In this document: positions 1-49,914 of the stretch, in pieces | Layout: each line of letters opens with the position of its first letter | How positions within the stretch are numbered: position 1 is the stretch's first letter | Source of the DNA: a virus | Taxonomy: Duplodnaviria; Heunggongvirae; Uroviricota; Caudoviricetes | DNA length: 49,914 nucleotides | Strand: one strand, 5' to 3' | IMG/VR virus record: IMGVR_UViG_2802429222_000003 | The notes under the pieces: model-generated | Told to the model about the DNA's origin: nothing | The model's input: the letters and a program-made list of their open reading frames with translations, nothing else | The model's database searches: none | Made by a program: the position numbers and the translations under genes

Positions 1-263
1 ATGGCACCGGACATTATCCTGCTGCGTACCGGGATCGACGTGAGGGCTGTCAAACAGGGAGATAATGCGTGGCACAAATTACGGCTCAGCGTCATTACCG
101 CTTCTGAAATTCACAACGTGATAGCAAAACCCCGTTCAGGAAATAAGTAGCCTGACATGAGAAGTACATGCCGAGTTTTGACGAGATGGTGCCGGAGTTC
201 ATCGAAAAAATGGACGAGACATTGGCTGAAATTGGTTTTGTATTTGGGGAGCAATGGCGATGA
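1..263 (+). pseudogene. lambda-type exonuclease remnant: first 49 codons ending in a premature TAG, joined by an internal ~420-bp deletion to the last ~100 bp of exo
   Basis: 1..160 matches 46222..46381 and 161..263 matches 46801..46902 of the intact exo in this window (about 11 mismatches in the first 120 nt by eye); TAG at 148..150 where the intact copy has TGG. Confidence 0.7.
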
Positions 264-537
264 AGCATACTCACGATAATATCCGCGTAGGCGCGATCAC
301 TTTCGTCAAACCGATCGTTATCATGATAATTGAGGTAAAGAATGGCGCAAAGTAGCGTTGTGAAAATTTAAACGTCTCAACGCCTCCTTGAATTTCTCAC
401 CCCACATGAAAAAGAACCAAACAGCCCGCTTTGAGCGAAAAACGAACTATGATATTAGCAAGAAAGCATCACTGTTAATATTCGAACAATTAATGCTCAG
501 CTATTTCTCTATTATTTACAATCAGAAAGGACGTGTA

Positions 538-948
538 ATGGGTAAGGTTGATGAACTAAAGATGAAATATCCGGACGCGAATGCCTGGCAAATGGGCGAC
601 AGCCCTGAACTGGCTAACGAGCTTGCAGCACTTATAGAAAAAGGGATTAAAACGGCCTCCTGTGGCTCTTATGCCTCTTATCAGAAGGAAGAATTTGCCC
701 CAAGGATTGGGAGCTATAACATCATCCTTGACGGCCAGGATGTACCGGTATGCGTGACCAGGCTGGTGTCGATGCAACTGGTGTGTTTTTGTGATGTTAC
801 TGCCGAGTTAGCTCGCAAGGAAGGTGAAGGCGATTTGAGCCTTGAATATTGGCAGAGAGAGCATCAACGATTTTTCACCCAGGAAGGTCATTTTTCTGAA
901 GATATGGAGTTGATTATGGAAGAGTTTGAAGTTGTTGAGGTTCTGTAA
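538..948 (+). CDS. ASCH-domain-like small protein (137 aa)
   Basis: ATG at 538 preceded by AAAGGA; GxKT-type motif (EKGIKTASCGS); the 388 start in the ORF track gives a low-complexity extension with no ribosome-binding site. Confidence 0.45.
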   Translation: MGKVDELKMKYPDANAWQMGDSPELANELAALIEKGIKTASCGSYASYQKEEFAPRIGSYNIILDGQDVPVCVTRLVSMQLVCFCDVTAELARKEGEGDLSLEYWQREHQRFFTQEGHFSEDMELIMEEFEVVEVL

Positions 949-1211
949 GATGAGATAAACGAGCTGACGTTATATCAATTGGCATTTATAACAATGTCCG
1001 CACCTGACACATAGCGGATCTAAATATTAACGAGCGTCCACCAAATAGAGGAATGTCTAATAGGAACCTGGCAGTAGAACTGTCATCTGACTGACCAACC
1101 GACCCCAAACAACTAAGAGGTTTTGATAACTTATTTTGATAACCGTTAGCAAACTAACATAAAACAACGGGCGTGTTATACGCCCGTTACAATATTTAAC
1201 ACATGTAGTAA

Positions 1212-1376
1212 TTACATGTTCTTGATGATCGCATCACCAAACTCTGAACATTTCAGCAGCTTAGCGCCTTCCATCAGACGTTCGAAGTCATAGGTTACGG
1301 TCTTAGCGTTAATTGCGCCTTCCATACCTTTAACAATCAGGTCTGCGGCTTCAGTCCAGCCCATATGGCGCAGCAG
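1212..1376 (-). pseudogene. icd: isocitrate dehydrogenase 3' fragment (54 codons + stop), icdC-like att-site duplication
   Basis: minus-strand translation [54 protein letters not shown] matches the recalled Icd C-terminus; similarity stops abruptly at about 1376, upstream is AT-rich non-icd sequence. Confidence 0.75.
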
Positions 1377-1914
1377 TATATAAAAACATTAAGTTCAATT
1401 CATTGATATTTAATGATAAAAATTATTTTATTGTCTTTTTATTAGCCAAAATCAACTTTATTCAACCGTTTGATTTCATTGACGTTCGTTTTTATTTTGG
1501 GGAAAGGTTTTATCTACCATTTATATCAAAATTACAAGCCTACATTTTATTAACATCTCAATACATGTGAGGCCTTGCAGACCTTTGTGAGGCCTTATGT
1601 GTCTCAGTTTTGTCCCTCTTTTTTGTACTAAAAAACATAGTAATTGAGGATAAACCTCATGCTATTTTCGCTTATATGCCTCTAAAGGCATGGCACTTAA
1701 ATAGATAAAAGCACCACAAAATCATAAAAAAACCACACAGTAAAACCGCAATATGAAACAATAACAGATAATTAAACCAAAAACAGATAGCGCATTGTGA
1801 TAATCATTCAATACTAAACAAAATATAAACAGTGGAGCAATATGTAATTGACTCATTAAGTTAGATATAAAAAATACATATTCAATCATTAAAACGATTG
1901 AATGGAGAACTTTT

Positions 1915-2868
1915 ATGCGGGCGAAACTTCTGGGAATAGTCCTGACAACCCCTATTGCGATCAACTCTTTTGCTTCTACCGAGACTTTATCGTTTACTCC
2001 TGACAACATAAATGCGGACATTAGTCTTGGAACTCTGAGCGGAAAAACAAAAGAGCGTGTTTATCTAGCCGAAGAAGGAAGCCGAAAAGTCAGTCAACTT
2101 GACTGGAAATTCAATAACGCTGCAATTATTAAAGGTGCAATTAATTGGGATTTGATGCCTCAGATATCTATCGGGGCTGCTGGTTGGACAACACTCGGCA
2201 GCCGAGGTGGCAATATGGTCGATCAGGACTGGATGGATTCCAGTAACCCCGGAACCTGGACGGATGAAAGTAGACATCCTGATACACAACTCAATTATGC
2301 CAACGAATTTGATCTGAATATCAAAGGCTGGCTCCTCAACGAACCCAATTACCGCCTGGGACTCATGGCCGGATATCAGGAAAGCCGTTATAGCTTTACA
2401 GCCAGAGGTGGTTCCTATATCTACAGTTCTGAGGAGGGATTCAGAGATGATATCGGCTCCTTCCCGAATGGAGAAAGAGCAATCGGCTACAAACAACGTT
2501 TTAAAATGCCCTACATTGGCTTGACTGGAAGTTATCGTTATGAAGATTTTGAGCTAGGTGGCACATTTAAATACAGCGGCTGGGTGGAATCATCTGATAA
2601 CGATGAACACTATGACCCGGGAAAAAGAATCACTTATCGCAGTAAGGTCAAAGACCAAAATTACTATTCTGTTGCAGTCAATGCAGGTTATTACGTCACA
2701 CCTAACGCAAAAGTTTATGTTGAAGGCGCATGGAATCGGGTTACGAATAAAAAAGGTAATACTTCACTTTATGATCACAATAATAACACTTCAGACTACA
2801 GCAAAAATGGAGCAGGCATAGAAAACTATAACTTCATCACTACTGCTGGTCTTAAGTACACATTTTAA
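1915..2868 (+). CDS. ompT: outer membrane protease OmpT (omptin), 317 aa
   Basis: full-length match to recalled E. coli OmpT sequence (MRAKLLGIVLTTPIAI...AGLKYTF). Confidence 0.95.
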   Translation: MRAKLLGIVLTTPIAINSFASTETLSFTPDNINADISLGTLSGKTKERVYLAEEGSRKVSQLDWKFNNAAIIKGAINWDLMPQISIGAAGWTTLGSRGGNMVDQDWMDSSNPGTWTDESRHPDTQLNYANEFDLNIKGWLLNEPNYRLGLMAGYQESRYSFTARGGSYIYSSEEGFRDDIGSFPNGERAIGYKQRFKMPYIGLTGSYRYEDFELGGTFKYSGWVESSDNDEHYDPGKRITYRSKVKDQNYYSVAVNAGYYVTPNAKVYVEGAWNRVTNKKGNTSLYDHNNNTSDYSKNGAGIENYNFITTAGLKYTF

Positions 2869-3117
2869 GAACGCCAACTAAAATTTCCCCGAGGTGAAAA
2901 TCGCCCCGGGGAATAACTAGCCATTTCAATGTAACAATTAACCCTTAAAATAAACCCAGAAGGTTATTAACTAAATCACATAGAAAACCATCAATTATAG
3001 TGTGTATAAAATAGGCGACAGCAACCCAATTACAAATTAATGGTTCCAGAATATCACATCAAAAAACACGCTATATAATATTATAATTAACATGTAGACA
3101 ACTTGTAATAAATATTA

Positions 3118-3867
3118 TCAGTCAATTGTTTTGTTTATTCCATCTGTGACGCCGATTATTTTCTCAAAATAATGAGATGGCGTGACACCATAATAATCTT
3201 TAAATGCACATATGAAATATGAAGTACTGTTATAGCCACATTTCTGGGCTACGACATTGATAGAATAAGAGTTTGAAGTTATGAGTTTTTTTGCATACCT
3301 CATCCTAGTATCTCTCAATATTTCAGTAAATGACGTTCCTTCATCCCTTAATCTTTTTTTTATTAAACTTTCACTCGTATAAATCAATTCCGCAATATCT
3401 TTTAAATGCCATTGCCGCTCAATATTAAAACTGATTATTCCAGTAATTTTACAGGTAAATGTATTTATATTTGTTAGTATAAATGAATTTACACTTTCGC
3501 GTTTTTTGAACATGGCAAGTAAGGATATACATAGTCTTTCTTTTAACCAAAGGGAGTGTGAGTCTGCTATTTTAATCCCTTCAAACAGAGAAAAAACAAG
3601 CGATAATGGAGGTTCCTCTTCAGCAATATAGCCATTCTTATCAAGAGTAAATTTGCCAGGCAACTCATTATTCACGTCGATAAAAAAGGATAAACATGTT
3701 TTCTTATCTATATCAACAATTCTTAGTTTAGAGGGGCATACTGGTAACTCTCTTCTAATTTTGTCGCTTACAATAAACAATGAATTTTTTTTGAACGAGA
3801 TAACTCTCCTGTTTATAATTAAATCAAATGATTGACAGATGAAAACTACGGAGCAAACATAATCCAT
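3118..3867 (-). CDS. appY: AraC-family transcriptional activator AppY, 249 aa
   Basis: matches recalled AppY sequence and length; adjacent to ompT as in the K-12 DLP12 region; C-terminal AraC HTH. Confidence 0.9.
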
Positions 3868-4543
3868 CTTGCACCTATCATAAAATTAAAACAAGTTGAT
3901 AGTAGTCAAATAACAACCAATTAAATACACAATCATAATCAGGATGATGTGCATTTATATTTTTATACACAAAATTATAGTTTGCAAATTTTAATAAATT
4001 TCATTTAAGATTAAATTATTATATGTATATTGTTTTTTATTCTAACGTATTTCAAAGTTACATTTTTTCAACGATTACTATGCTTTTTATTAACATAAAC
4101 TCACTACAACGCACCTGAAACCTCTTGCTATATATATGTCAACCGTTTGAATTTAAAATAAAAAGAGTATCATTTTTACTTGCATTTCTTATCAAGTCAC
4201 ATTCAACAACAGTAAAAAAACATTATTAGAACCATTCAATTAACAAAAAACCAACATTCAGCTTGCTTAATTTTTCTTTATTAAACGATATTGAAAATCA
4301 ATTGATAAAATACATCTAAACAACCTTTTGGGGCGCAAAAGCATAACATCAAACAAACAAATAACACACCGAAAAAACTCACAATTAATAACCTATGATA
4401 TACATACTGTTTATTATGGTTGAATAAGCCACTCGATATCTGGTGCTACGGAAGTGTCCACACGGTTTAGCAACACCCGATACTTTTTCCTGGCTTCCAG
4501 CAACGGGGTTTCTTCCTCCGTTGCATATACAGCTCACCTTTTT

Positions 4544-4837
4544 TCACCCACGATTAACCAACAGCCAGACCAGCAGACACGCCACCACCGGCACAGCAAA
4601 ATCCATCAGGCTTGCCACATCCCAAGCTCGCGGATCAAAACCGCCCCACCACGGCATATTCATACGCTTGCCATGTCCGAACATTTCAATCCAGCGATAT
4701 TCTGCCTGGGTGTGTTCACGCGCAATGAAGAACGTACAACCAGCTATCGCTCCGTAAGCCCAGTTTCCGGTAAAAAGACCAACCAGTATCTGCGCAGCCA
4801 CAGCACAAAGTGCATGAAGTAAGGGGCTTATATCCAT
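4544..4837 (-). CDS. small membrane protein with two predicted transmembrane helices (97 aa)
   Basis: AGGAGG 7 nt upstream of ATG; hydrophobic N- and C-terminal segments; 12 nt after the preceding gene. Confidence 0.55.
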   Translation of the reverse strand: MDISPLLHALCAVAAQILVGLFTGNWAYGAIAGCTFFIAREHTQAEYRWIEMFGHGKRMNMPWWGGFDPRAWDVASLMDFAVPVVACLLVWLLVNRG

Positions 4838-4849
4838 TATTTCCTCCTT

Positions 4850-5128
4850 TCAGCTCCATTCCCGAAGCGGTGTTTCCAGCTCCACGACATAATCAGAGAA
4901 TACAGAAACATCAAACAAGTCATCAAGAATGCGAATGTTGACAAAATAACCGTCATTCCGGATACAGACAGGTTCTCCCTCTTCAGTTACCCCTGTTTCT
5001 GTGTAGGTGAAACCAATTTCATCGACTAACAGTTTATTCTGGAGGTCTTCATCTTCCTCCCAGTCAAGAGATGACAGGAAGGATTTAAACTCTCTGTTTC
5101 CAGGAAATTTCAAAGTTAAATCTTTCAT
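4850..5128 (-). CDS. small acidic protein coupled to the side tail fibre (92 aa); possible fibre assembly factor
   Basis: ATGA start/stop overlap with stf, GGAGG ribosome-binding site; no resemblance to classical Tfa. Confidence 0.5.
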   Translation of the reverse strand: MKDLTLKFPGNREFKSFLSSLDWEEDEDLQNKLLVDEIGFTYTETGVTEEGEPVCIRNDGYFVNIRILDDLFDVSVFSDYVVELETPLREWS

Positions 5129-7146
5129 ACTGCCTCCTTGATTTGCCTGTCATTTAATTCTTTAAACCAGACTCTGAAATTTCTGATGTGTCCAAACAAA
5201 TGACGCGTTCCTGCTGCGGTCTGCCCACCAAACCGGTACGATGTTGCTGTAACTCCAAATATTTTACCATTAAGGTTTGTTGTATAATTACCATTGCATA
5301 TTGCATTTACTGATAAATCAGATTTAGCTCTCACACCCACAATGAACCTTTCTCCATCTGAGGCAATTTGTGGCTGAACCATTCCTACGTTGGCGCTTAT
5401 CTTTCCTGTTGAAACAAACCCCAGCGATAAATAATTATCATCAATACTGTGCCCTCCAACATCAAATATCCTTGGCGCAACATTGGGCGGTGTACTCCAG
5501 TTCCTGCTTACTTCGCACAATACCGTAAAAGGCCGTGTTGACAGGTTATTCTGCGATGGGATAGTAACCACATCACTTGCGCGTGTTGTTGGCATTGTAG
5601 TTACAATAAATGACGATGCCGTATTGCCCAGTTCAATTTGCGGCGTCGTCATGGTTAATGTTGAGTCATCATAGAATGGCTCATTACTTATTTTATTTGT
5701 CATATAAAAAGCACAGTTAACGGTATCAATGTCCGTATTAGCTGTATAAGTGGCCTCATAGTAGGTCCACTCGCCCTGTTGTTCAGCTTTGGCTGTTATA
5801 AGGGATGTATTACCGCTTACTGTTGCGATCCGGGTATCCAGATCAAGATAAGAGTCAGCAGAGAAGGTATCTGTTCCACCAATAATAACTGAAACTCTTA
5901 ACCTGCATCGTGCTTTAGCGCCTTTAACCCGGCACGAAAAAGTGAAACATTCACCACTTGCCAGCGGGAATCTGTCTGCTGCAACCACACCATGCACAGT
6001 ATAGCCACCTGTTGTTCCCACTATACTTTCCGTGGGTGTCACCGTGGCATAATTGAACCCCTGTTTATCAGTGCCAAATGTTTTATTCAGTGCGGAATGA
6101 ACAGTCCATGAGTCTGGTTTATTTGAGTTCCTCAGATAATTTGTCCTCTGTCCTTCAATCAATAAGCCATCGCGCTCAAATCGCGGTTCATCAACTTCAG
6201 CAAGCTTGAGTTGGCCGGACTTATTAATATACGTTGCTGTTGAAGCACGTTTAAACTTAACAATCTTGTCGCCTGGCATTGTTATTTCATCGTCACCAAT
6301 AACAATCTTTTTATATGATGGCGAAAACCCCGTAATCATATCCAGTGTATCGTTAAACGGTATCCATACATCAGGCAGCGGCGGCACTATATTCGCATAG
6401 GGCTCTGCAGTCACTTCCGCTGCGGCTTCTGCGCGGTCTGCCGCCTTTTCTGCTCGTGTCGCTGCCGACAGAGCCTCATCCTTTTTCTGCCCGGCCTTTG
6501 TTGCGTCTGCTGCGGCCTCCCGCGCTTTTGTGGTGGCGATTCCGGCATTTTCAGCGGCTGACTCTGCATTACGGCGGGAAGCCTCTTCACTGTCTGCGGA
6601 GGCTTCCTCTGACGCACGGGCATTTGTCTCTGAATGTTCTGCCGCTGTTGCTGCATTTTGTGCGGCTGTTTTTGAAGAAGCTGCCGCTTTCGCGCTGTTA
6701 CCTGCATTCGTCTCTGATGTTTTCGCCGCGTTCCTGGACGATGCCGCTGCTGTTTCTGATTTCTTTGCTGCCGCTGCGCTCTGAGAGGCGGCTTCAGCGT
6801 TGCGTGCCGCCTCTTCCACCATCTTTTCAAAACGATACAGTGCCTCCGGACGAACATCATCTTCTGTTGCAGCGCCCAGAAAATCATTCAATGTCCCCGG
6901 CTTAGAATCCTCATACACGGTGATGGTCCCGGCATGTGAAGGCGGAAAACCTTCAACCAGCAGGGCGACGCTGTACTGGCCATACTCAACATCCATGCTG
7001 TAACGTCCGGCTTCATCCGGATTTTCTGAGGCCACCGTGTTCACCACAACTGTGGTGCTGTTACGTTTTGCTTTGAGCTGAATGGTGCAGTTCTGTATCG
7101 GTTTTCCTGCACCGTCTTTCAGCACACCTGAAATCTGTACTGCCAT
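5125..7146 (-). CDS. stf: side tail fibre protein, lambda Stf-like N-terminus with divergent distal domain
   Basis: N-terminus MAVQISGVLKDGAGKPIQNCTIQLKA... resembles lambda Stf; Ala/Ser/Glu-rich repeat region; ATG at 7146 with GGAG 6 nt upstream (track start 7152 is GTG). Confidence 0.8.
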   Translation of the reverse strand: MAVQISGVLKDGAGKPIQNCTIQLKAKRNSTTVVVNTVASENPDEAGRYSMDVEYGQYSVALLVEGFPPSHAGTITVYEDSKPGTLNDFLGAATEDDVRPEALYRFEKMVEEAARNAEAASQSAAAAKKSETAAASSRNAAKTSETNAGNSAKAAASSKTAAQNAATAAEHSETNARASEEASADSEEASRRNAESAAENAGIATTKAREAAADATKAGQKKDEALSAATRAEKAADRAEAAAEVTAEPYANIVPPLPDVWIPFNDTLDMITGFSPSYKKIVIGDDEITMPGDKIVKFKRASTATYINKSGQLKLAEVDEPRFERDGLLIEGQRTNYLRNSNKPDSWTVHSALNKTFGTDKQGFNYATVTPTESIVGTTGGYTVHGVVAADRFPLASGECFTFSCRVKGAKARCRLRVSVIIGGTDTFSADSYLDLDTRIATVSGNTSLITAKAEQQGEWTYYEATYTANTDIDTVNCAFYMTNKISNEPFYDDSTLTMTTPQIELGNTASSFIVTTMPTTRASDVVTIPSQNNLSTRPFTVLCEVSRNWSTPPNVAPRIFDVGGHSIDDNYLSLGFVSTGKISANVGMVQPQIASDGERFIVGVRAKSDLSVNAICNGNYTTNLNGKIFGVTATSYRFGGQTAAGTRHLFGHIRNFRVWFKELNDRQIKEAV

Positions 7147-7204
7147 ATTCACTCCACAAATAAAAAAGGCACCATTTCTGGTGCCCGAATTTGGGTTTTA
7201 AAAT

Positions 7205-10200
7205 TCAACTGATACTGATGCCGGCTGTTGATTTCTTCATCACGACAACAAGAAGGTCGCTGATACTGGTCGTTGGCGTCCAGTTATTTGCACCATATGA
7301 AGAAACATTGAAAGTCAGGGTGACATGGCCGTGTCCGGCAGGCATATCAATGACTGATGAAAATACCCTGCTGACATCCGTCGCGGGTTGCTGAAAGATT
7401 TCCTGTCCGTTCTTCAGCACCTGCAGCTTACAGGTTGAATACCAGTATGACTGTTGGTTGTTGCTGTTGAAGTTTTCATGCTTACCACCGCGAAACAGAA
7501 CGGGGGGGATTACTATCTGACGGTCAAAAGCCTGGTCATCGTACACCGTGACCGTTATTGTACCGCTGGCATAACTGCTATTTCTCGGAAAGGCTTTTCC
7601 CACCGTTTTAACAATATCGCCTTCAATCTGGTTGGCTGACAGTTTTCCCAGAATCCGGCAGTTCTGATTAATCGTGACATTGTTGAGCGTCCCGGAGTTC
7701 GCGTTCACGTTACCGCTGATATCCGCATTTTTCGCCGTCAGCCGCCCGTCCGGTGTCAGGGAAAATGCCGGAGGATTACCGCCGCTGGTAATGGTGGGAG
7801 CCGTCAGATATTTCAGGAACACTTCATTCATAAATATCTGATCGCCCTGACCAACAAACATCGGCTTTGTATTGCCATTCGCAGGATTAATCATCGCAAT
7901 CCTGTCCGCCGCCAGCAGCACCTGACTCTGCATACCGTCAGGGGTATTCTCAATACCGGCACCAATACCCGCGATATAAAGGCGTCCGTCCTGCATCTGC
8001 TGCAGCTTCACAGCCCACATGCTGTTCAGGTTATTATTTGTATCAACCTGAACCTTCTGTATCTGCTGGATCGCTGCACTCTGGTCTTCCAGTTTCTTAT
8101 TGACGGTCTGCGTGATTTCATTGCTGACATCCGTAATGGACGTCCTGATTTCAGCCAGGTCAGGCGCAAGCTGACCGTTATCAATCTGCGTCCACAACTC
8201 CTGAGCCAGATGGGTTTTCCCTATCTCTCCTTTGAAAAAATCCAGATAGCCGGATGCATCATCACTCGGCTGGCCAACAGCCTCCACAAATGCCGATTTG
8301 CCAACGGTGTTCACACTGCGAATGTAAAAATAATAATCATGGCCCGGTTTGATATTGATACTAGCGGCTATCCAGTACAGCGCCGTACCAAGATAACGCG
8401 CGCTGGCTTCAACCTGCCTGATATCCGCAATCCGCTTTTCCGAGAACCAGAACTCAAACTGTACCGTCGGATCATAAACGGCAAGATGCGGCGTTGCGGT
8501 TATCTGAAAATAGCCCGGCGTCAGCTCAATCCGCGATGGCGCTGCCGGTGCGGCAATCCGGAACGATACCGACGCCGGATCCCCCTGCTGCCCCCACGCA
8601 TTTACCGCCCGGACTGTCAGCCTGTAGTTCCCCAGCGCCAGTTGCCTGAAGCGGTATGTGGTTTCCGTCGTCCTGGCCGTGCTGACCAGCCGCTCACTGC
8701 CGTCATCCGCTGCCACGGTCAGGCGAAGCATAAAGCTCCCCCCCTTCACCACCTTCGGCGTGTCCCAGCGCGCCAGCACCTGGTATTCCCCGCTGTCTGC
8801 GGTGACTTCTGCAGTCAGGTGCTGCACCGCGGGCGGCGTGACACCGTTCACCGTTCCGCTCTGGTCGCCGTCAAAGTACGCCCCGTTATCCACGATGGCT
8901 TCTTTCTCCGGTACATGCTGCACGGCAGTGATGGCATACGTGCCGTCATCGTTCTCACGGATACTCACACAGCGGAACAGGCGCTGGCGCAGCATCGGCA
9001 GCTTCAGCCCCCACACGCTGTATCCGGCAACGCCGTCAGGAACACGGCTCACTTTCACCTTCACACCGTCGGTGACGGACTGGACCTCCACGCTGACCGG
9101 ATTCCCCTGCCCGTCAACCAGGCTTATCAGCGTGGTGCCGGAGGATGGCAGCGTGATTTCACGGTCGAGCGTCAGCGTCCGGGTCTGGCTGTTCACCGCC
9201 AGCACACGCCCACCGATGCTGATACCGGCATAGTCATCATCGCAGATTTCAATGACATCCCCCGGTACATGGCGAAGCCCTTCAGCACCCACGCTGAAGT
9301 CCACGGTCTGCGTTTCCAGCAGCTCCGTTTTAATCAGCCACAGCCCGGCGCGGTGTGCCTGCCCCCGACTGGTACAGCCAAAGGCATCCATCTTCGTGAC
9401 GTTACGGCCGTAACGGGCAATGGCCTGCGTATCCTCCACGAGCTCTGTCGCCGTCTCCCAGCCGTTGTTCGGGTCAATCCAGTTCACCTCAACGGCATTA
9501 TGGCGGTCCTTCAGGGCGCTGAAGCTGTAGCGGAACGGCGCGCCATCATCCGGCATCACCACATTACTGCGGTTATAGGTCCACACCTTATCTGATGGTC
9601 GGTCCTGCACGAACGTCAGCGTCTGCCCGTTCCATACCGGCATACAGCGCATCGCCGAGCAGAAATCACTGAGCACATCCCACGCCTTGCGCTGTGTGGT
9701 CAGGTACGCATTACAGGTGATGCGCGGCTCCGTGCCGCCAAAGCCGTCCGGCACTGACTGGTCGCAGTACTGGCCGATGACATACAGCGCCCATTTATCC
9801 ACATCCGCCGCACCAAGACGTTTCCCCATGCCGTAGCGCGGATGGGTCAGCATATCCCACAGACACCAGGCCATGTTGTTGCTGTATGCCGGTTTAAACG
9901 TTCCGTCCCAGATACCGCTGTATTGCCGCGTCTGCGGGTTATAATTCGACGGCACCTGCAGAATACGCCCGCGCAGATGATAATTACGGCTCACCTGCTG
10001 ACTGCCGAACTGCTCCGAGTCCACCTGCACGCCGACCAGTGCCGTGTTCGGGTAGCACTGTTTCACATCGATAATTTCGGTGTATGACGACCAGAGCGTT
10101 TTGTTCTGCAGCTGGTCTGTGGTGCTGTCCGGCGTCATCCTGCGCATCCGGATACTGAACGGGCGCGGCGGCAGGTTATCCACCACCACCGAGGCCAGAT

Positions 10201-25453: not shown

Positions 25454-25479
<26 letters not shown>

Positions 25480-25999
25480 TCAGCAACCCCGGTATCAGTT
25501 CATCCAGCGCGGCTGCTTTGTTCATGGCTTTGATGATATCCCGTTTCAGGAAATCAACATGTCGGTTTTCCAGTTCCGGAAAACGCCGCTGCACCGACAG
25601 GGGGATCCCGTCGAGAATACTGGCAATTTCACCTGCGATCCGCGACAGCACGAAAGTACAGAATGCGGTTTCCACCACTTCAGCGGAGTCTCTGGCATTT
25701 TTCAGCTCCTGTGCGTCGGCCTGCGCACGCGTAAGTCGATGGCGTTCGTACTCAATAGTCCCTGGCTGCAGATCTGTCTCGCTGGCCTGCCGCAGTTCTT
25801 CAACCTCCCGGCGCAGCTTTTCGTTCTCAATTTCAGCATCCCTTTCGGCATACCATTTTATGACGGCGGCAGAGTCATAAAGCACCTCATTACCCTTCCC
25901 GCCACCTCGCAGAACGGGCATTCCCTGCTCCTGCCAGTTCTGAATGGTACGGATGCTCGCACCGAAAATGTCAGCCAGCTGCTTTTTGTTGACTTCCAT
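25454..25999 (-). CDS. Nu1: terminase small subunit Nu1 (181 aa)
   Basis: MEVNKKQLADIFGASIRTIQNWQEQGMPV... essentially identical to recalled lambda Nu1. Confidence 0.95.
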
Positions 26000-26260
26000 T
26001 GTTCATTCCACGGACAAAAACAGAGAAAGGAAACGACAGAGGCCCAAAAGTTCGTTTTCAGCACCTGTCGTTTCCTTTCTTTTCAGGGGGTATTTTAAAT
26101 AAAAACATTAAGTTACGACGAAGAAGAACGGAAACGCCTTAAACCGGAAAATTTTCATAAATAGCGAAAACCCGCGAGGTCGCCGCCCCGTAACCTGTCG
26201 GATCGCCGGAAAGGACCCGCAAAATGATAATAATTATCATCTACATGTCACAACGTGCAT
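26000..26260 (-). other. cos packaging site: cosN 12-nt cohesive-end sequence at 26177..26188 with cosB to the left and cosQ side to the right
   Basis: plus strand AGGTCGCCGCCC is the reverse complement of lambda GGGCGGCGACCT; flanks match recalled lambda left- and right-end sequences. Confidence 0.9.
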
Positions 26261-29107: not shown

Positions 29108-29601
29108 TGCTGACCCCACAAACAGATTTCACGCTCAATCTCACGACGAGTCATGAGACCTTTCCATTGCTTACCGCCAGCATATGTCCAGCGACGTAGC
29201 TGATCACATGTGCCTTTGATATCGCCCTGGTTTATTTTGCGAAGAAGCGTCGATGTTCTGAAATTGCCAGCGCCCACGTTGTAAACGAACGAGTAAAGAG
29301 CGCCGCGCATTGTTTCCGGTATATCAACTTTTATGTACGGGTTAATTTGTCTGGCGACCGTGGCAAGGTCTTTATTCAGGAGGGCTTTGCATTCTGCTTT
29401 GGTATACGTTTTACCGAGCATGATGTCTTTTCCTGTATGCCCGTGACATACAGTCCATACACCAACAATATCTTTGTATGGTATGTAGCTGACACCTTCC
29501 AGACCATCGTTACCACTTGGGCCAGTGATTAACACTGATGCTATAGCAATTGCTCCGCCACCAATAGCAGCAGCAACGACTTTTCGTAATGATGGAGGCA
29601 T
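29104..29601 (-). CDS. R: SAR endolysin (phage 21 R-type lysozyme, 165 aa)
   Basis: Gly/Ala-rich N-terminal signal-anchor-release segment followed by a T4-lysozyme-like catalytic region; resembles recalled R21 / DLP12 RrrD. Confidence 0.9.
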
Positions 29602-29816
29602 TATTCACCTCTCGCAGCCTTGCGCTTATCTTCTTTAATCTTGAAATAAAGGTTTGTCAGGTACGTCAGCAGGCCAAATACCAGGCTACCCAGCACACCT
29701 ATTGCTGCCCACTGTGAGGGCGTGACTTTATCGAGCAGCTGTAAAAACCAGTAGCCAGCACTGCCTGCGGAGGTGCCGTAGGCAATGCCCGTTGTTAACT
29801 TATCCATGGATTTCAT
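29601..29816 (-). CDS. S: pinholin (phage 21 S-type class II holin, 71 aa, dual start MKSM)
   Basis: matches recalled S21 (...[17 protein letters not shown]...[11 protein letters not shown]...[13 protein letters not shown]). Confidence 0.9.
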
Positions 29817-30004
29817 AGCCTCACCTCCGCAAATAACGGATGGTGTACACGGTTCGGAACGAAGAGGAAAGGTATAGAAGTTACATTAGCGTAAGGCTTG
29901 AACATCTATTCAAAAAGAAAAACGCCAGCGATTATTCTGGCGTAGCTGAAAGCATCATACAATTATCAAATACGAAAATTACAAAATCATTAAAACGCAT
30001 CACG

Positions 30005-34169: not shown

Positions 34170-34331
34170 GATTCCTCCTTGCTGCCAGTCGCAACCATTT
34201 TTTATCAACCAGGCTAGCGGTATATCCGAGCAGTGTTGGTATTTCGGATGGCTTCAGCTCAGGCTTACGCTTACGACGATTTGATACTCTGTAGATGTGT
34301 CCGTTCATGACACGAATAAGCGGTGTAGCCA

Positions 34332-34787
34332 TTACGCCTCCTGCTTGTCGCGGAGCTGCTGGAACTCGCAGCTCTGCGGAATAGTCAGGTGGCAGCCAAT
34401 ATTCACCGCCCAGGCTTCAACCTTACACAGGAAGACATACATCTCTCCGGTATCAAGATCGGAGGTATGGCGTAACGACTGGATAGTGGTGATATCACCG
34501 GTTACGACATCAACCAGGTCTTTGGTTTCATAACCGAGATATGTGTGTTTGAGAGCATCTTTTACCCAAGCTGGAGTGGCGAACGTTTTACCCCTGCTGA
34601 TGAGGTGTTCACTGATTTCGCTGTACCACATGTGGCTGAGTGCATTCTGGGAAAGACTGCGTTTCTCACGCCACGGTTTAAGCACCATGCGAAAGCATTT
34701 GCCCTCCTCCAGATAAGGCTGGATCTGCCGACCGATAGCGGTGAAGTTGCCGCGATGTAATTTGATGCCGTCTTGTGAGAGGTTCAC
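34332..34787 (-). CDS. nin-region protein, YbcN-like (151 aa)
   Basis: length and position match DLP12 ybcN; no motif recognised. Confidence 0.55.
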
Positions 34788-35001
34788 GCTTCACCTCCGC
34801 AGAGGTCAAACGCTAGATGCAAAGAATTGCAGGTGCATTTCTGCATCTGTGAAGGGAGAAGAGAGTTTGGATTGTATGTGCGCATAAACGTCCCCGTTTA
34901 GCGCAGAAGTCACCGGAGTTGTTCAGGCTCCGGTGACATAATTATGCCGTGTTGATTTCCCAAAATCAAAATCGATAGAATTGCTCCTTCTTAAAACACT
35001 T

Positions 35002-35799
35002 TTACTCTCTGGAAGCTTTTCTTATCTCTCTTGGTGTTATATTAAAACGATTATGAAATCTTTCAGTAAAACGAGAAGGACACTTATAACCATTTTCTCT
35101 GGCAATCTCGCTTATAGGTTTTACCGTCGTTTGTATAGCAGACAACGCATTATTTAACCTCACATCGTCCAGTATACTTTGGAAACTTACCCCCTCGCTT
35201 GCTAGACGGCGATGTAATGTAGAAACAGAAATGTAGAGATATCGAGCAACCTTGTTTGCTGTCCATTTTGTGCCGGGTTCGGATAGCAGCAGGTTATAAC
35301 AACGACTTATCAATGATTGTTTACTATATGATAAAAGTAAATGATTAACATGATTCACTCCTAACGAAAGTAGAACGCCCATTGCTAAGTGCTCCTGAAT
35401 TTTAGTTGAGAAGCCTCGGGAAACAGATGTTTTTAGTTGCTCCCAACAATATATTAACTCAGGATTCTGAGGTAAAAAGAAACTTGTTTTGTTACGTATT
35501 TGATCAGTTACCGTATAAAGTTTTTGGAAACTCTCAATTAAATCAATGGGTAAGTAAAGCATTTCTGCAAGATAAAGCCCTGCTTCAGGATAATTCTCAA
35601 TATAAAATTCATAACCACAAGGAAATAATATTATTTGATTATTATCAACAGTTAAAGTATGCGTCTCCCAATTGATAACTTTCTTTCCCTGACGGATACG
35701 ACACAAAGCTGGCATAAGAGGCTTAACCCTATGAATCTCATGATGTTTATGCATCCGTATTTCTTCGATCTTTAAGTTAGTCTTACCTCTTGCCAGCAT
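35002..35799 (-). CDS. AraC-family regulator, YbcM-like (265 aa)
   Basis: C-terminal AraC HTH; AT-rich cargo block. Confidence 0.8.
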
Positions 35800-35808
35800 A
35801 CTCTCACC

Positions 35809-36360
35809 CTACTTTATCTCATAAACTGGTGTTATCTCAGCGGTTGCGATTTTATTAGCATTAAGCATATAACCAACTAACGCTCCGCTGGAGTTAGAAT
35901 CTACAGGAATCTTTTCAGTTTTTAGAGCCCATACTTTAAACTGGTAATGATGTGGTTTATCTCCTTTAGGAGGACATGCGCCACCAAACCCAGCATAGCC
36001 AAAATCATTTCGGCCTTGAACAGCACCAGTCGGCAGTTTTGTTCCATCACGTCTCCCTGCATCAACGGGCAAATATGTTATTGTTGCTGGAATATTAACA
36101 ACAGTCCAATGCCACCAACCACTGCCTGTAGGTGCATCTGGATCATATACAGTTACGGCAAAGCTTTTGGTACCTTCAGGAACACCAGACCAGGTTAATG
36201 AGGGCGATGTATTACCACCTTCACACCCAAATCCAGAAAAGACATGAGACGTTGTAAGTTGCTCTCCTGTTTTTATTTCATTACTAGTGACCTGAAATGC
36301 TGCAGCCTGCGCAGAAAATGTTATGAATGCCAATACAGTTGAAACGATAAGTGTTTTCAT
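35809..36360 (-). CDS. PEBP-family periplasmic protein, YbcL-like (183 aa)
   Basis: signal peptide; PEBP signatures DPDAP and HHY. Confidence 0.85.
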   Translation of the reverse strand: MKTLIVSTVLAFITFSAQAAAFQVTSNEIKTGEQLTTSHVFSGFGCEGGNTSPSLTWSGVPEGTKSFAVTVYDPDAPTGSGWWHWTVVNIPATITYLPVDAGRRDGTKLPTGAVQGRNDFGYAGFGGACPPKGDKPHHYQFKVWALKTEKIPVDSNSSGALVGYMLNANKIATAEITPVYEIK

Positions 36361-36577
36361 AAAAACCTCTTTGTTATGACCTATCGTTATTTTATTTGAT
36401 ATTCCTTTATCTCATTATGCATAAAGGCGCAATGTTTATGCAAAAGCAATCACAATTGTACCCCCAACCCAATTATTTGCCACAATATACACAAAGCACA
36501 TTGATACTATCTAAAAACTCTGCTTTATTATTAGTAATACCTACGAAAGTCGGTGTTATTTTTTAACCTACCATTCA

Positions 36578-38351: not shown

Positions 38352-38605
38352 GGTGACACCTGCTAACGTATGCTTTTATAAACCTTAGTGGTGGGATATA
38401 ATTTTTGTTTAATTTTTATTTAAAAAGACAATTAAGGTCACATTATCTTGAATATACAACAATAATCGTATTGCAATTTTCTTACGCCATAATCTTGAAA
38501 GCACAAAAGAATACATAAAAAATAAAGACATTAACAAAAAGCATAAAACGAGGCTCATATAAATATAAGAGCCTCCATATTTTAGTCGTTTAGAAACAAA
38601 TTATT

Positions 38606-38938
38606 TTAATGTGGTGTGCTTCGTGACAATAAATTAATAACCAACACACCGGCACAAATCAACATCATGCCTATAATGGCTGGCAGGTCCAGCCGTTGGC
38701 CGAAAAGTCCCCATGACAGTAAGCTAATCAGGACAATACCGACTCCTGACCAGATAGCATAAGCAATCCCTGTAGGAATATAAGCCAGCGTCTGAGCTAA
38801 TAACCAGAATGATGCACAATAACAAATAATTGTACCAACAGATGGCCATAACCGTGTAAAACCTTCTGAAAACTTCATTAAGGTTGTACCAATGACCTCT
38901 GCAAGTATTGCACCACCAAGATAAATATAAGGGTTCAT
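38606..38938 (-). CDS. emrE: small multidrug resistance efflux transporter EmrE (110 aa)
   Basis: from the internal Met the product MNPYIYLGGAILAEVIGTTLMKFSEGF... matches recalled EmrE; track ORF has an 18-codon extension. Confidence 0.9.
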   Translation of the reverse strand: MNPYIYLGGAILAEVIGTTLMKFSEGFTRLWPSVGTIICYCASFWLLAQTLAYIPTGIAYAIWSGVGIVLISLLSWGLFGQRLDLPAIIGMMLICAGVLVINLLSRSTPH

Positions 38939-39005
38939 AGCATATTCTTTCCTGTTCAAACTGGAGAGAATTGTACTACAGTTTGAACTCAACTCACCTG
39001 TTTCA

Positions 39006-39308
39006 TCATTGTGTACCCATTGATGTTCTTTTATATACCCTCAATACCCGTTTCATCGCGGCACTCTGGCGACACTCCTTAAAAATCAGATTCGTGCTCA
39101 CCTTTCCTTCCCGTTCTTCTCTGGTAGCGAACCGGTAATACACCGTTCGCCAGACCTTACCATCAACGACCAGGATTCCTGCCCGCGCCATTTTAGCCGC
39201 AGCCTGATTTATGCTGGTTACGGTTGCGCCTGTTACCGCGGCAACGTCCTGTGCACAGAAGCTCTTATGCGTCCCCAGGTAATGAATAATTGCCTCTTTG
39301 CCCGTCAT
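39006..39308 (-). CDS. ren: Ren exclusion protein
   Basis: MTGKEAIIHYLGTH... similar to recalled lambda Ren. Confidence 0.85.
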   Translation of the reverse strand: MTGKEAIIHYLGTHKSFCAQDVAAVTGATVTSINQAAAKMARAGILVVDGKVWRTVYYRFATREEREGKVSTNLIFKECRQSAAMKRVLRVYKRTSMGTQ

Positions 39309-45439: not shown

Positions 45440-46225
45440 ATGAGTACAGCACTCGCAACGCTGGCTGGGAAGCTGGCTGAACGAGTCGGCATGGATTCTG
45501 TCGACCCACAGGAACTGATCACCACTCTTCGCCAGACGGCATTTAAAGGTGATGCCAGCGATGCGCAGTTCATCGCATTGCTGATCGTCGCCAACCAGTA
45601 CGGTCTTAATCCGTGGACGAAAGAAATTTACGCCTTCCCTGATAAGCAGAACGGCATCGTTCCGGTGGTGGGCGTTGATGGCTGGTCCCGCATCATCAAC
45701 GAAAACCAGCAGTTTGACGGCATGGACTTTGAACAGGACAACGAATCCTGCACATGCCGGATTTACAGCAAAGACCGCAATCATCCGATCTGCGTTACCG
45801 AGTGGATGGATGAATGCCGCCGCGAACCATTCAAAACCCGCGAAGGCAGAGAAATCACCGGACCGTGGCAGTCGCATCCCAAACGGATGTTACGGCATAA
45901 AGCCATGATTCAGTGTGCCCGTCTGGCCTTCGGATTTGCTGGTATCTATGACAAGGATGAAGCCGAGCGCATTGTCGAAAATACTGCATACACTGCAGAA
46001 CGTCAGCCGGAACGCGACATCACTCCGGTTAACGATGAAACCATGCAGGAGATTAACACTCTGCTGATCGCCCTGGATAAAACATGGGATGACGACTTAT
46101 TGCCGCTCTGTTCCCAGATATTTCGCCGCGACATTCGCGCATCGTCAGAACTGACACAGGCCGAAGCAGTGAAAGCTCTTGGATTCCTGAAACAGAAAGC
46201 CACTGAGCAGAAGGTGGCAGCATGA
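45440..46225 (+). CDS. bet: Bet single-strand annealing protein (261 aa)
   Basis: matches recalled lambda Bet. Confidence 0.95.
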
Positions 46226-46902
46226 CACCGGACATTATCCTGCAGCGTACCGGGATCGACGTGAGAGCTGTCGAACAGGGGGATGATGCATGGCACAAAT
46301 TACGGCTCGGCGTCATCACCGCTTCAGAAGTTCACAACGTGATAGCAAAGCCCCGATCAGGAAAGAAATGGCCTGACATGAAAATGTCCTACTTCCACAC
46401 TCTGCTTGCTGAGGTTTGCACCGGTGTGGCTCCGGAAGTTAACGCTAAGGCGCTGGCCTGGGGAAAACAGTACGAGAACGACGCCAGAGCCCTGTTTGAG
46501 TTTACTTCCGGCGTGAATGTTACTGAATCCCCGATCATCTATCGCGACGAAAGTATGCGCACCGCCTGCTCTCCCGATGGTTTATGCAGTGACGGCAACG
46601 GCCTTGAGCTGAAATGCCCGTTTACCTCCCGGGATTTCATGAAGTTCCGGCTCGGTGGTTTCGAGGCCATAAAATCGGCTTACATGGCCCAGGTGCAGTA
46701 CAGCATGTGGGTGACGCGAAAAGATGCCTGGTACTTTGCCAACTATGACCCGCGTATGAAGCGTGAAGGACTGCATTATGTCGTGGTTGAGCGGGATGAA
46801 AAGTACATGGCGAGTTTTGACGAGATGGTGCCGGAGTTCATCGAAAAAATGGACGAGGCACTGGCTGAAATTGGTTTTGTATTTGGGGAGCAATGGCGAT
46901 GA
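46222..46902 (+). CDS. exo: lambda exonuclease Exo (226 aa)
   Basis: matches recalled lambda Exo. Confidence 0.95.
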
Positions 46903-47081
46903 CGCATCCTCACGATAATATCCGGGTAGGCGCGATCACTTTCGTCTACTCCGTTACAAAGCGAGGCTGGGTATTTCCCGGCCTTTCTGTTATCCAAAAT
47001 CCACTGAAAGCCCAGCGGCTGGCTGAGGAGATAAATAATAAACGAGGGGCTGTATGCACAAAGCATCTCCCGTTGAGTTAA
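46893..47081 (+). CDS. lambda orf60a-like small protein
   Basis: [24 protein letters not shown]... resembles recalled lambda orf60a. Confidence 0.6.
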
Positions 47082-48545: not shown

Positions 48546-48782
48546 ATGTCTCGACTAATCACTTTACAGGACTGGGCTAAAGAAGAATTTGGGGACTTAG
48601 CACCAAGTGAGCGAGTTCTGAAAAAATACGCGCAAGGGAAAATGATGGCCCCACCCGCTATAAAAGTTGGTCGCTACTGGATGATTGACCGAAATTCCCG
48701 TTTTGTAGGAACGCTTGCAGAACCGCAACTCCCAATAAACGCAAACCCAAAACTCCAACGGATAATCGCTGATGGCTGCTAG
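48546..48782 (+). CDS. xis: excisionase Xis
   Basis: strong ribosome-binding site AAGAGGAGG; small basic protein immediately upstream of and overlapping int. Confidence 0.8.
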   Translation: MSRLITLQDWAKEEFGDLAPSERVLKKYAQGKMMAPPAIKVGRYWMIDRNSRFVGTLAEPQLPINANPKLQRIIADGC

Positions 48783-49914
48783 ACCCCGATCTCACAAAAT
48801 CTCTATACCCAATTTATATTGCAAATTAGATAAGCGAACCGGAAAGGTATATTGGCAATACAAACATCCACTATCCGGTCGTTTTCATAGCTTAGGAACT
48901 GATGAGAATGAAGCAAAACAAGTTGCTACTGAAGCAAATACCATTATTGCTGAACAACGTACCCGACAAATATTAAGCGTCAATGAGCGTCTGGAAAGAA
49001 TGAAAGGCAGGCGCTCAGACATTACGGTGACAGAATGGCTTGATAAATATATTTCTATCCAGGAGGACAGGCTGCAACATAATGAACTAAGACCCAACTC
49101 CTATCGGCAAAAAGGCAAACCCATTCGTCTTTTCCGTGAGCATTGTGGAATGCAACACCTCAAGGATATTACCGCACTTGATATTGCCGAAATAATTGAT
49201 GCTGTAAAGGCTGAAGGTCATAACAGGATGGCGCAAGTCGTGAGAATGGTGTTGATCGACGTCTTCAAAGAAGCACAACACGCAGGACATGTTCCGCCAG
49301 GATTTAACCCAGCGCAGGCAACAAAACAACCGCGAAATCGAGTAAACCGCCAAAGATTGTCACTGCCCGAATGGCAGGCAATATTTGAAAGCGTAAGCAG
49401 ACGGCAGCCCTATTTAAAATGCGGCATGCTACTTGCTCTTGTTACTGGACAACGTTTAGGCGATATCTGCAATTTGAAATTCTCTGATATATGGGACGAC
49501 ATGTTGCACATTACTCAGGAAAAAACCGGTTCAAAACTTGCTATTCCGCTTAACCTGAAATGCGATGCTCTGAATATTACCCTTCGTGAAGTTATATCTC
49601 AGTGCAGGGATGCTGTTGTTAGTAAATATCTGGTCCATTACCGTCACACTACCTCTCAAGCAAACAGAGGAGACCAGGTTTCTGCAAATACTCTGACAAC
49701 GGCTTTTAAAAAGGCCCGGGAAAAATGTGGCATAAAATGGGAGCAAGGAACTGCGCCCACATTTCATGAGCAGCGATCTCTGTCAGAACGGTTATATCGG
49801 GAACAGGGTCTGGATACGCAAAAGTTGTTAGGTCATAAATCCAGAAAAATGACCGACCGATACAATGATGATCGTGGTAAAGACTGGGTTATCGTAGATA
49901 TTAAAACAGCATAG
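48772..49914 (+). CDS. int: tyrosine integrase (lambda Int family, e14/phage 21-like, 380 aa)
   Basis: C-terminal catalytic region with R...HxxR...Y pattern (HEQRSLSERLY, LLGHKSRKMTDRY); N-terminus MAARPRSHKISIPNLY. Confidence 0.93.
   Translation: MAARPRSHKISIPNLYCKLDKRTGKVYWQYKHPLSGRFHSLGTDENEAKQVATEANTIIAEQRTRQILSVNERLERMKGRRSDITVTEWLDKYISIQEDRLQHNELRPNSYRQKGKPIRLFREHCGMQHLKDITALDIAEIIDAVKAEGHNRMAQVVRMVLIDVFKEAQHAGHVPPGFNPAQATKQPRNRVNRQRLSLPEWQAIFESVSRRQPYLKCGMLLALVTGQRLGDICNLKFSDIWDDMLHITQEKTGSKLAIPLNLKCDALNITLREVISQCRDAVVSKYLVHYRHTTSQANRGDQVSANTLTTAFKKAREKCGIKWEQGTAPTFHEQRSLSERLYREQGLDTQKLLGHKSRKMTDRYNDDRGKDWVIVDIKTA

Follow-up and report, generated by a model that had tools for sequence, protein, structure and literature searches.

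The window analysed here, a stretch of 49,914 nucleotides, contains a 46-kb prophage that encodes Gam, Bet and Exo and, at the 5′ end of the window, a damaged second copy of the junction between exo and orf60a. The exo gene of the resident prophage (46222..46902, + strand) is a full open reading frame (ORF) of 226 aa that matches the Pfam YqaJ profile over positions 2–149 of 150 (E = 2.3e-30), and it is followed by an intact orf60a-like DUF1317 gene (46893..47081, + strand; 62 aa; Pfam DUF1317, E = 2.8e-39). The remnant, also on the + strand, consists of a 5′ fragment of exo (exo′; 1..160, codons 1–53 of a lambda-type exonuclease), a 7-bp junction (157..163), a 3′ fragment of exo (161..259, the last ∼33 codons and the stop codon, with a frame-3 translation of 34 letters that is out of frame with the 5′ fragment), and the first 16 codons of orf60a (orf60a′; 260..307), which match the DUF1317 profile at positions 1–16 only (E = 2.5e-6).

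Alignment of the two copies, by an ungapped repeat search and by local alignment, gave a 5′ repeat between positions 1–163 and 46222–46384 (146 of 163 bases identical, 89.6%) and a 3′ repeat between positions 157–307 and 46796–46946 (144 of 151, 95.4%). The corresponding BLAST E-values (2e-72 for the 5′ block and 3e-64 for the 3′ block) are far beyond chance, and self-comparison of the window revealed no long direct repeats other than these two. The first-pass annotation had described a degraded second exo/orf60a copy in direct orientation ∼46 kb from the intact one, to be abandoned if a proper alignment gave far lower or only short-range identity; the description held under alignment, except that the match had been drawn to position 327. 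It ends at 307 (46946 in the intact copy), since positions 308–327 share only 4 of 20 bases with 46947–46966 and belong to another gene, the 3′ end of an integrase. To the left of the window, as read in the near-identical genome CP099351.1 (L008), the homology begins 38 bp earlier, at the 3′ end of bet.

The remnant carries several kinds of damage. Codon 50 is an in-frame TAG (148–150) where the intact copy has TGG, changing KKW to NK*, and the mismatches with the intact gene include first and second codon positions. The stretch of exo that is absent, earlier put at about 420 bp, is exactly 418 bp, corresponding approximately to codons 53–192, and shifts the reading frame, as it is not a multiple of 3. 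No continuous ORF thus spans the YqaJ domain (PF09588), whose catalytic core lies in the middle of the protein, and neither of the two translated exo′ pieces had a Pfam match. As judged from its sequence, the remnant is a pseudogene derived from the YqaJ/lambda exonuclease family and not a functional member of it.

In the intact copy, the points that correspond to the ends of the deletion each carry the heptamer ATGAAAA, at 46378–46384 and 46796–46802 on the + strand; the presence of both heptamers had been noted previously, although at 46377 and 46793, positions that are off by 1 and 3. The remnant retains a single copy at its junction, in the form ATGAGAA, in which the junction base G161 deviates from the heptamer. 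The pair lies 418 bp apart in five independent exo alleles (offsets 156/574 in four of them and 162/580 in the fifth), and because a 7-bp repeat conserved at this spacing occurs at both ends, the loss fits an event between short direct repeats. Microhomology between the heptamers, as was proposed at the outset, or slippage would therefore be a fitting cause.

The remnant is approximately equidistant from all intact exo alleles examined (89–91% identity in the 5′ block and 94–95% in the 3′ block), and with both halves combined it is 93–94% identical to the exo genes of Stx phages and O157 strains. This equidistance argues that it is no copy of the resident exo gene. Gene conversion was considered as the cause of the higher identity of the 3′ block (95% versus 90%) and was discarded, because exo alleles in general resemble one another more closely in the 3′ block (97–100% versus 92–99%) and the remnant is equidistant from them; it shows no trace of conversion by the resident allele.

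Directly joined to orf60a′ are the last 19 codons and the stop codon of an e14-type integrase (int′; 307..363, + strand). Positions 307–438 match the 3′ end of intE of the K-12 prophage e14 and the 74 bp downstream of it (L034 4936–4806) at 86.4% identity, with E-values of 2e-31 in a search of E. coli genomes and 8e-40 in a local comparison. Translated, the fragment reads QTDRYHDN*GKEW and is similar to the C-terminal end of the resident prophage integrase as well (MTDRYNDDRGKDW). The fusion falls at codon 16 of orf60a′ with at most 1 nt of microhomology at the junction, and the in-frame premature TGA (331–333) stands where intE has CGA. We conclude that a single deletion at the orf60a′/int′ junction took away the ea region and xis together with almost the whole of int. 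The 19 codons that are left read towards icd, are 86% identical to intE and contain an internal TGA; they make the type of integrase recognisable, but the gene itself is gone.

Beyond int′ lies a cargo cassette (424..948, + strand) with an intact ORF (538–948, 136 aa) that encodes an ASCH-domain protein (Pfam ASCH, E = 2.5e-21). At 92% identity, the cassette matches cargo carried by a P2-like prophage of E. coli 2547 (L003 6001–6524), where the ASCH gene has a restriction endonuclease gene and a retron Ec67-type reverse transcriptase gene as neighbours. Its occurrence in both a P2-like prophage and this relic suggests that the ASCH gene is a moron common to unrelated phage types. In the relic it fills the slot between int and att that is held by lit-ymfE-ymfD in e14 of K-12. 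The flanking stretches 364–423 and 949–1020 are intergenic or have no assigned match.

The next segment (1021..1158, no strand assigned) is an e14-type attL arm, the int-proximal, P′-side arm of the relic, with repeats of the TTTTGATAA type. It is followed by a displaced 3′ end of icd on the − strand (1159..1375), which comprises the terminator (1159–1211) and the last 164 bp of the gene (icd′, 1212–1375) and is 93% identical to K-12 icdC. Positions 1021–1375 together are 79% identical to the e14 side of K-12 icd (L034 1790–1411), which has the same type of repeats. The e14 match of 1021–1158 came only from this comparison with K-12 e14: a short-query BLAST of 949–1165 against int regions gave no match, and the native iraM-side flank of E. 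coli 582 holds no counterpart of 1021–1158. A repeat of this type at positions ∼1117–1145 (∼10640–10680 in L004), next to the icd terminator on its outer side, differs in copy number between Escherichia marmotae genomes through an 11-bp indel. The repeats may be arm-type integrase binding sites, a putative assignment.

The order exo′, orf60a′, int′, cargo, att arm and icd 3′ end mirrors that of the intact prophage, in which exo (46222) and orf60a are followed in turn by xis, int and icd. The resident integrase gene (48772..49914, + strand) encodes 380 aa with Pfam Arm-DNA-bind_1 and Phage_integrase domains, and icd lies 114 bp downstream of it in every genome with this exact integrase (10 loci). 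The two ends thus stand in tandem, exo′→int′→icd′ and exo→int→icd, both on the + strand and with the att-derived fragment between them. Identical Int at icd is very common (6124 blocks of the collection). Among prophages of E. coli and Shigella-like genomes with the same integrase (L014–L021), the exo-int end has decayed independently, through IS1 insertions, loss of exo in L017 and a split exo in L020, and McrBC genes adjoin O′/YdaT remnants. The resident prophage carries ompT (1915–2868, + strand) and appY (3118–3867, − strand) in the stretch that leads from the att crossover at 1375 to the tail-fibre genes, an arrangement at icd that is also found in E. coli 582 and O157 strains. The outer-membrane protease OmpT is here phage cargo at icd and not at DLP12/argU as in K-12.

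The remnant and its surroundings recur in other genomes. In a public collection, the exact ASCH protein is present in 177 blocks and the exact 49-aa ORF of exo′ in more than 160. We fetched 10 loci through the ASCH protein (all NCBI assemblies, three of them traced to E. marmotae) and 10 through the 49-aa ORF, and all 20 agreed in the 418-bp deletion and in the TAG, differing by 0–3 SNPs per 540 bp. The genomes CP025979 (PMC6650469), CP099351.1 (L008; PMC12299893) and CP188181 (PMC12211086) are E. marmotae; the window differs from CP099351.1 by a single mismatch in its first 10,948 bases. At 8 of the 10 loci in the ASCH set and 5 of the 10 in the 49-aa ORF set, the relic and the ASCH gene lie beside an intact icd without the prophage, and homology to the window stops at position 1375, at ...GCGCAGCA, inside icd. 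The match of these empty-site genomes up to 1375, followed by intact icd, places the att crossover of the 46-kb prophage at that base. The remaining loci carry an ompT-appY-tail fibre prophage exactly like that of the window. Because the same relic lies beside an intact icd in genomes that lack the prophage, it is older than the prophage and independent of it.

Searches of complete E. coli genomes with a junction-spanning 80-mer, with positions 1–1200 and with positions 1–3000 found no genome that holds exo′ and the ASCH gene together. Among the matches listed for complete E. coli genomes and phage records, the exo′ deletion was absent, all of them being two-piece matches to intact exo that span 725 bp, and an exact 26-mer over the deletion junction had no match in a collection of species-representative genomes. 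E. coli 582 has a similar ompT/appY prophage at icd, but iraM lies beyond its icd′ and there is no relic. The relic is apparently specific to E. marmotae.

Only the part of the relic from exo′ rightwards lies in the window, and we read the remainder from CP099351.1 (L008), in which positions 1–9463 are the left flank. Over ∼6 kb, this flank contains relic blocks that are colinear and co-oriented with positions 25467–46946 of the window, at 78–95% identity and mostly at 84–90%. In order, they are a nohD′/cos region (L008 3513–4062, window 25467–26225, 87–89%), lysis fragments (L008 4157–4338, window 29563–29825, 78–84%), nin fragments (L008 5897–5993, window 34208–34823, 88–91%), ybcM-ybcL (L008 5996–7651, window 34871–36538, 89.6% over 1671 bp), emrE (L008 8905–9379, window 38576–39049, 89.5%), renD′ (L008 9366–9429, window 39158–39221, 84%), and the last 38 bp of bet with the 5′ part of exo′ (L008 9426–9626, window 46184–46384, 89.6%). 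The exo repeat (90–95%) is therefore one of approximately 10 colinear blocks of homology between relic and prophage. Positions 3513–9770 of L008 also match DLP12 of K-12 block by block and in order, at identities similar to those with the window. These upstream blocks, together with the e14-type int′/attL arm and the shared orientation, bear out the earlier suggestion that a decayed lambdoid element lies beyond the att fragment in tandem with the prophage.

The relic in L008 further contains ynfU, a csp gene and an esterase insertion. Its renD′ and bet′ blocks overlap by 4 nt (L008 9426–9429) at a second deletion junction, from which P, O, the immunity region, N, gam and most of bet are gone; the junction parallels that of exoD and peaD in K-12 DLP12, with other endpoints. 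The structure also varies by strain: the emrE gene of the relic is interrupted by an IS66-family element in CP025979.1 (L004 5300–8000), and in AEME01000001.1 (L031 3400–3600) the relic is cut inside ybcL, with kdp/ybfA genes upstream. Homologous recombination between relic and prophage was considered for this last break and is unsupported, as ybcL of the window has no relationship to the sequence that precedes the break. Altogether, the relic no longer has a replication and immunity region, an ea-xis-int region or a functional cosN, and most of its exo is missing as well. The prophage has the lambda cosN AGGTCGCCGCCC at 26177, and we considered in-situ cos-to-cos packaging between the two elements, which is ruled out because the cosN 12-mer of the relic is destroyed, though its cos region is recognisable. 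The 9.4 kb that precede the remnant in L008 contain no second icd fragment that could be the far att site (attR) of the relic, and the far end has presumably been lost; the original integration of the relic at icd is consequently read from its int′/attL end only.

One explanation for the second copy is that it arose recently by partial duplication of the resident exo-orf60a region, through aberrant excision and reintegration or as an assembly artefact, and its position just outside the att junction of the prophage, in the same orientation as the intact copy, would agree with this. Yet at 90–95% identity the remnant is as far from the resident copy as from unrelated exo alleles, it occurs in several independent complete genomes, which excludes an assembly artefact, and the empty-site genomes, in which the deletion and the TAG are identical although icd is intact and the prophage absent, refute a duplication, so that we give this explanation practically no credence. 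Movement of a DLP12 (argU-type) cryptic prophage to a place beside icd by chromosomal rearrangement was considered as well, since DLP12 of K-12 also has an exo pseudogene, followed by emrE-ybcK-ybcL-ybcM, and the relic blocks are 84–90% identical to it. However, exoD of K-12 is truncated at its 5′ end and has a contiguous 3′ part, and so the exo′ deletion was a different event; moreover, the integrase fragment and att arm of the relic are of the e14 (icd) type and not of the intD/argU type, and a prophage integrated at icd would show precisely this order, exo′→int′→attL arm→icd. We therefore regard relocation from DLP12 as very improbable.

The most satisfactory account, which we consider very probably correct, is that positions 1–307 are the exo-orf60a piece of an ancient and heavily deleted lambdoid prophage that had integrated at icd, with an integrase and att site of the e14 type and early and late genes of the DLP12 type, and that was later joined by a complete prophage. 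Under this account, a lambdoid phage with such a combination of genes would have inserted itself at the icd 3′ end of an E. marmotae ancestor, leaving an element that now reads nohD′/cos′, lysis′, nin′, ybcM, ybcL, (esterase), emrE, renD′, bet′, exo′, orf60a′, int′, ASCH, attL arm and icd. It would have decayed through separate deletions, one from P through bet, one of 418 bp within exo and one from orf60a through almost all of int, with point nonsense mutations on top of them; the order of these events is what we infer. Later, a complete DLP12-like lambdoid phage with ompT/appY and an icd-specific integrase would have entered the same icd core by site-specific recombination, and its integration would have shifted the old icd 3′ end (1212–1375) and the relic to its far side, resulting in the arrangement relic, icd′, prophage and icd. 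The e14-like int/att and DLP12-like remainder of the relic could reflect a mosaic phage or more than one element.

The remnant has no plausible function of its own; at most it might recombine, as a weak substrate, with homologous DNA of the prophage, for which Red would be a likelier agent than RecA. A crossover between exo′ and exo would excise the DNA from ∼160/307 to ∼46380/46946, with predicted loss of ASCH, icd′, ompT, appY and all late, lysis, replication and immunity genes, and would leave the relic, a hybrid exo with the 3′ end of the prophage gene, orf60a, xis, int and icd. Because this product keeps the int end of the prophage, it would be a new relic rather than a clean loss of the prophage. 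For RecA-dependent exchange, E. coli needs perfectly matched stretches of at least ∼25 bp, and the rate drops sharply as sequences diverge. Exact runs do not exceed 21 bp in the 5′ block (163 nt, 90%) and reach 47 and 41 bp in the 3′ block (151 nt, 95%). De Paepe et al. (2014; PMC3945230) quote a ∼10,000-fold drop in RecA/host recombination at 4% divergence, and report that Red-type phage recombinases, in crosses of phage with defective prophage during the lytic cycle, lose only ∼100-fold at 12% divergence. Since Gam, Bet and Exo are supplied by the prophage, its induction could conceivably lead to rare exchange.

Whether the repeat goes further and acts as a substrate that regularly deletes or amplifies the prophage, as the first-pass annotation implied in calling it able to delete or duplicate the whole intervening element, can be judged from the same features. 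The direct orientation, the longer exact runs of the 3′ block and a recombination system tolerant of 12% divergence would all permit it. Set against them are the shortness of the blocks (∼150 nt each) and their divergence of 5–10%, at which the RecA route would be severely depressed, and the retention of the int end, which excludes a clean deletion. Larger substrates are also at hand: the ybcM-ybcL block outside the window (1671 bp, 89.6%, with 13 exact runs of at least 25 bp) and the icd′/icd att duplication (217 bp, 93–95% in relatives with identical Int) would compete as better ones, and the normal Int/Xis route is available. Furthermore, none of the 24 contigs with the 49-aa ORF was an exo′-orf60a-xis-int-icd recombinant, all being either empty-site or full tandem, in a search that would miss crossovers upstream of codon 50. 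We conclude that the direct repeats are real and may exchange on rare occasions, but that regular deletion or amplification through them is unlikely.

A more speculative reading concerns the far junction of the prophage (∼1021–1500). Because the new prophage adjoins a relic that still bears an e14-type int-proximal att arm, this junction might be a hybrid attP-like site, composed of the P arm of the new phage, the core and a P′-type arm from the relic, instead of an ordinary attR. If the resident integrase recognised the repeats of the relic arm, the directionality or efficiency of excision could change, or a secondary integration target could arise. The relic would then be an active modulator of prophage stability and mosaic evolution rather than inert debris, a role in which the hybrid site would combine with the ∼10 diverged homology blocks; we consider this reading quite improbable.

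The closest parallels are two cryptic prophages of K-12. The last ∼165 bp of icd are duplicated by e14 (Hill et al. 1989, cited in PMC13626634 and PMC6379469), and the relic shares with e14 the attachment site, the int 3′ end and downstream sequence (86%), the attL-side arm with TTTTGATAA repeats (79%) and a cargo slot between int and att. In the empty-site genomes it abuts the intact icd, with phage-derived sequence next to the icd stop codon and terminator, as in an e14-type prophage. In e14, intE and xisE are complete and lit-ymfE-ymfD form the cargo, whereas the relic has 19 int codons and ASCH, and its other genes are DLP12-like rather than e14-like. With DLP12 the relic has in common an exo pseudogene beside renD-emrE-ybcL-ybcM-nin-lysis-nohD, the loss of the immunity and replication region and block identities of 84–90%. 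In contrast to the relic, DLP12 lies at argU with intD, and its exoD is a 5′-truncated exo joined to a P fragment, with no internal 418-bp deletion; a common origin of exoD and the exo′ deletion in one event was accordingly rejected.

The pairing of an incoming lambdoid phage with a resident defective prophage that shares diverged blocks of homology resembles the situation described by De Paepe et al. (2014; PMC3945230), in which such blocks are documented substrates of Red-mediated mosaicism; here, by contrast, the remnant bears no mark of conversion by the resident allele. There is good documentation (PMC13626634, PMC6379469, PMC3945230) of the integration of e14 at icd, the DLP12 exo pseudogene, the stepwise “grounding” of prophages, and DNA exchange of lambdoid phages with defective prophages. 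The locus, of which a limited literature search found no description, is thus a new example of known processes, namely prophage decay and re-use of an att site, and leaves current understanding unchallenged.

These results are chiefly of use in annotation, as they separate the 5′ end of the window from the 46-kb prophage, assign it to a distinct, older relic that is present in every E. marmotae locus examined, and show ompT/appY to be prophage cargo here. The locus also provides a natural case of stepwise decay, with three independent deletions and nonsense mutations, in which the relic and the newcomer could exchange DNA, and it shows that icd has served repeatedly as an attachment site in the genus Escherichia outside E. 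coli as well.
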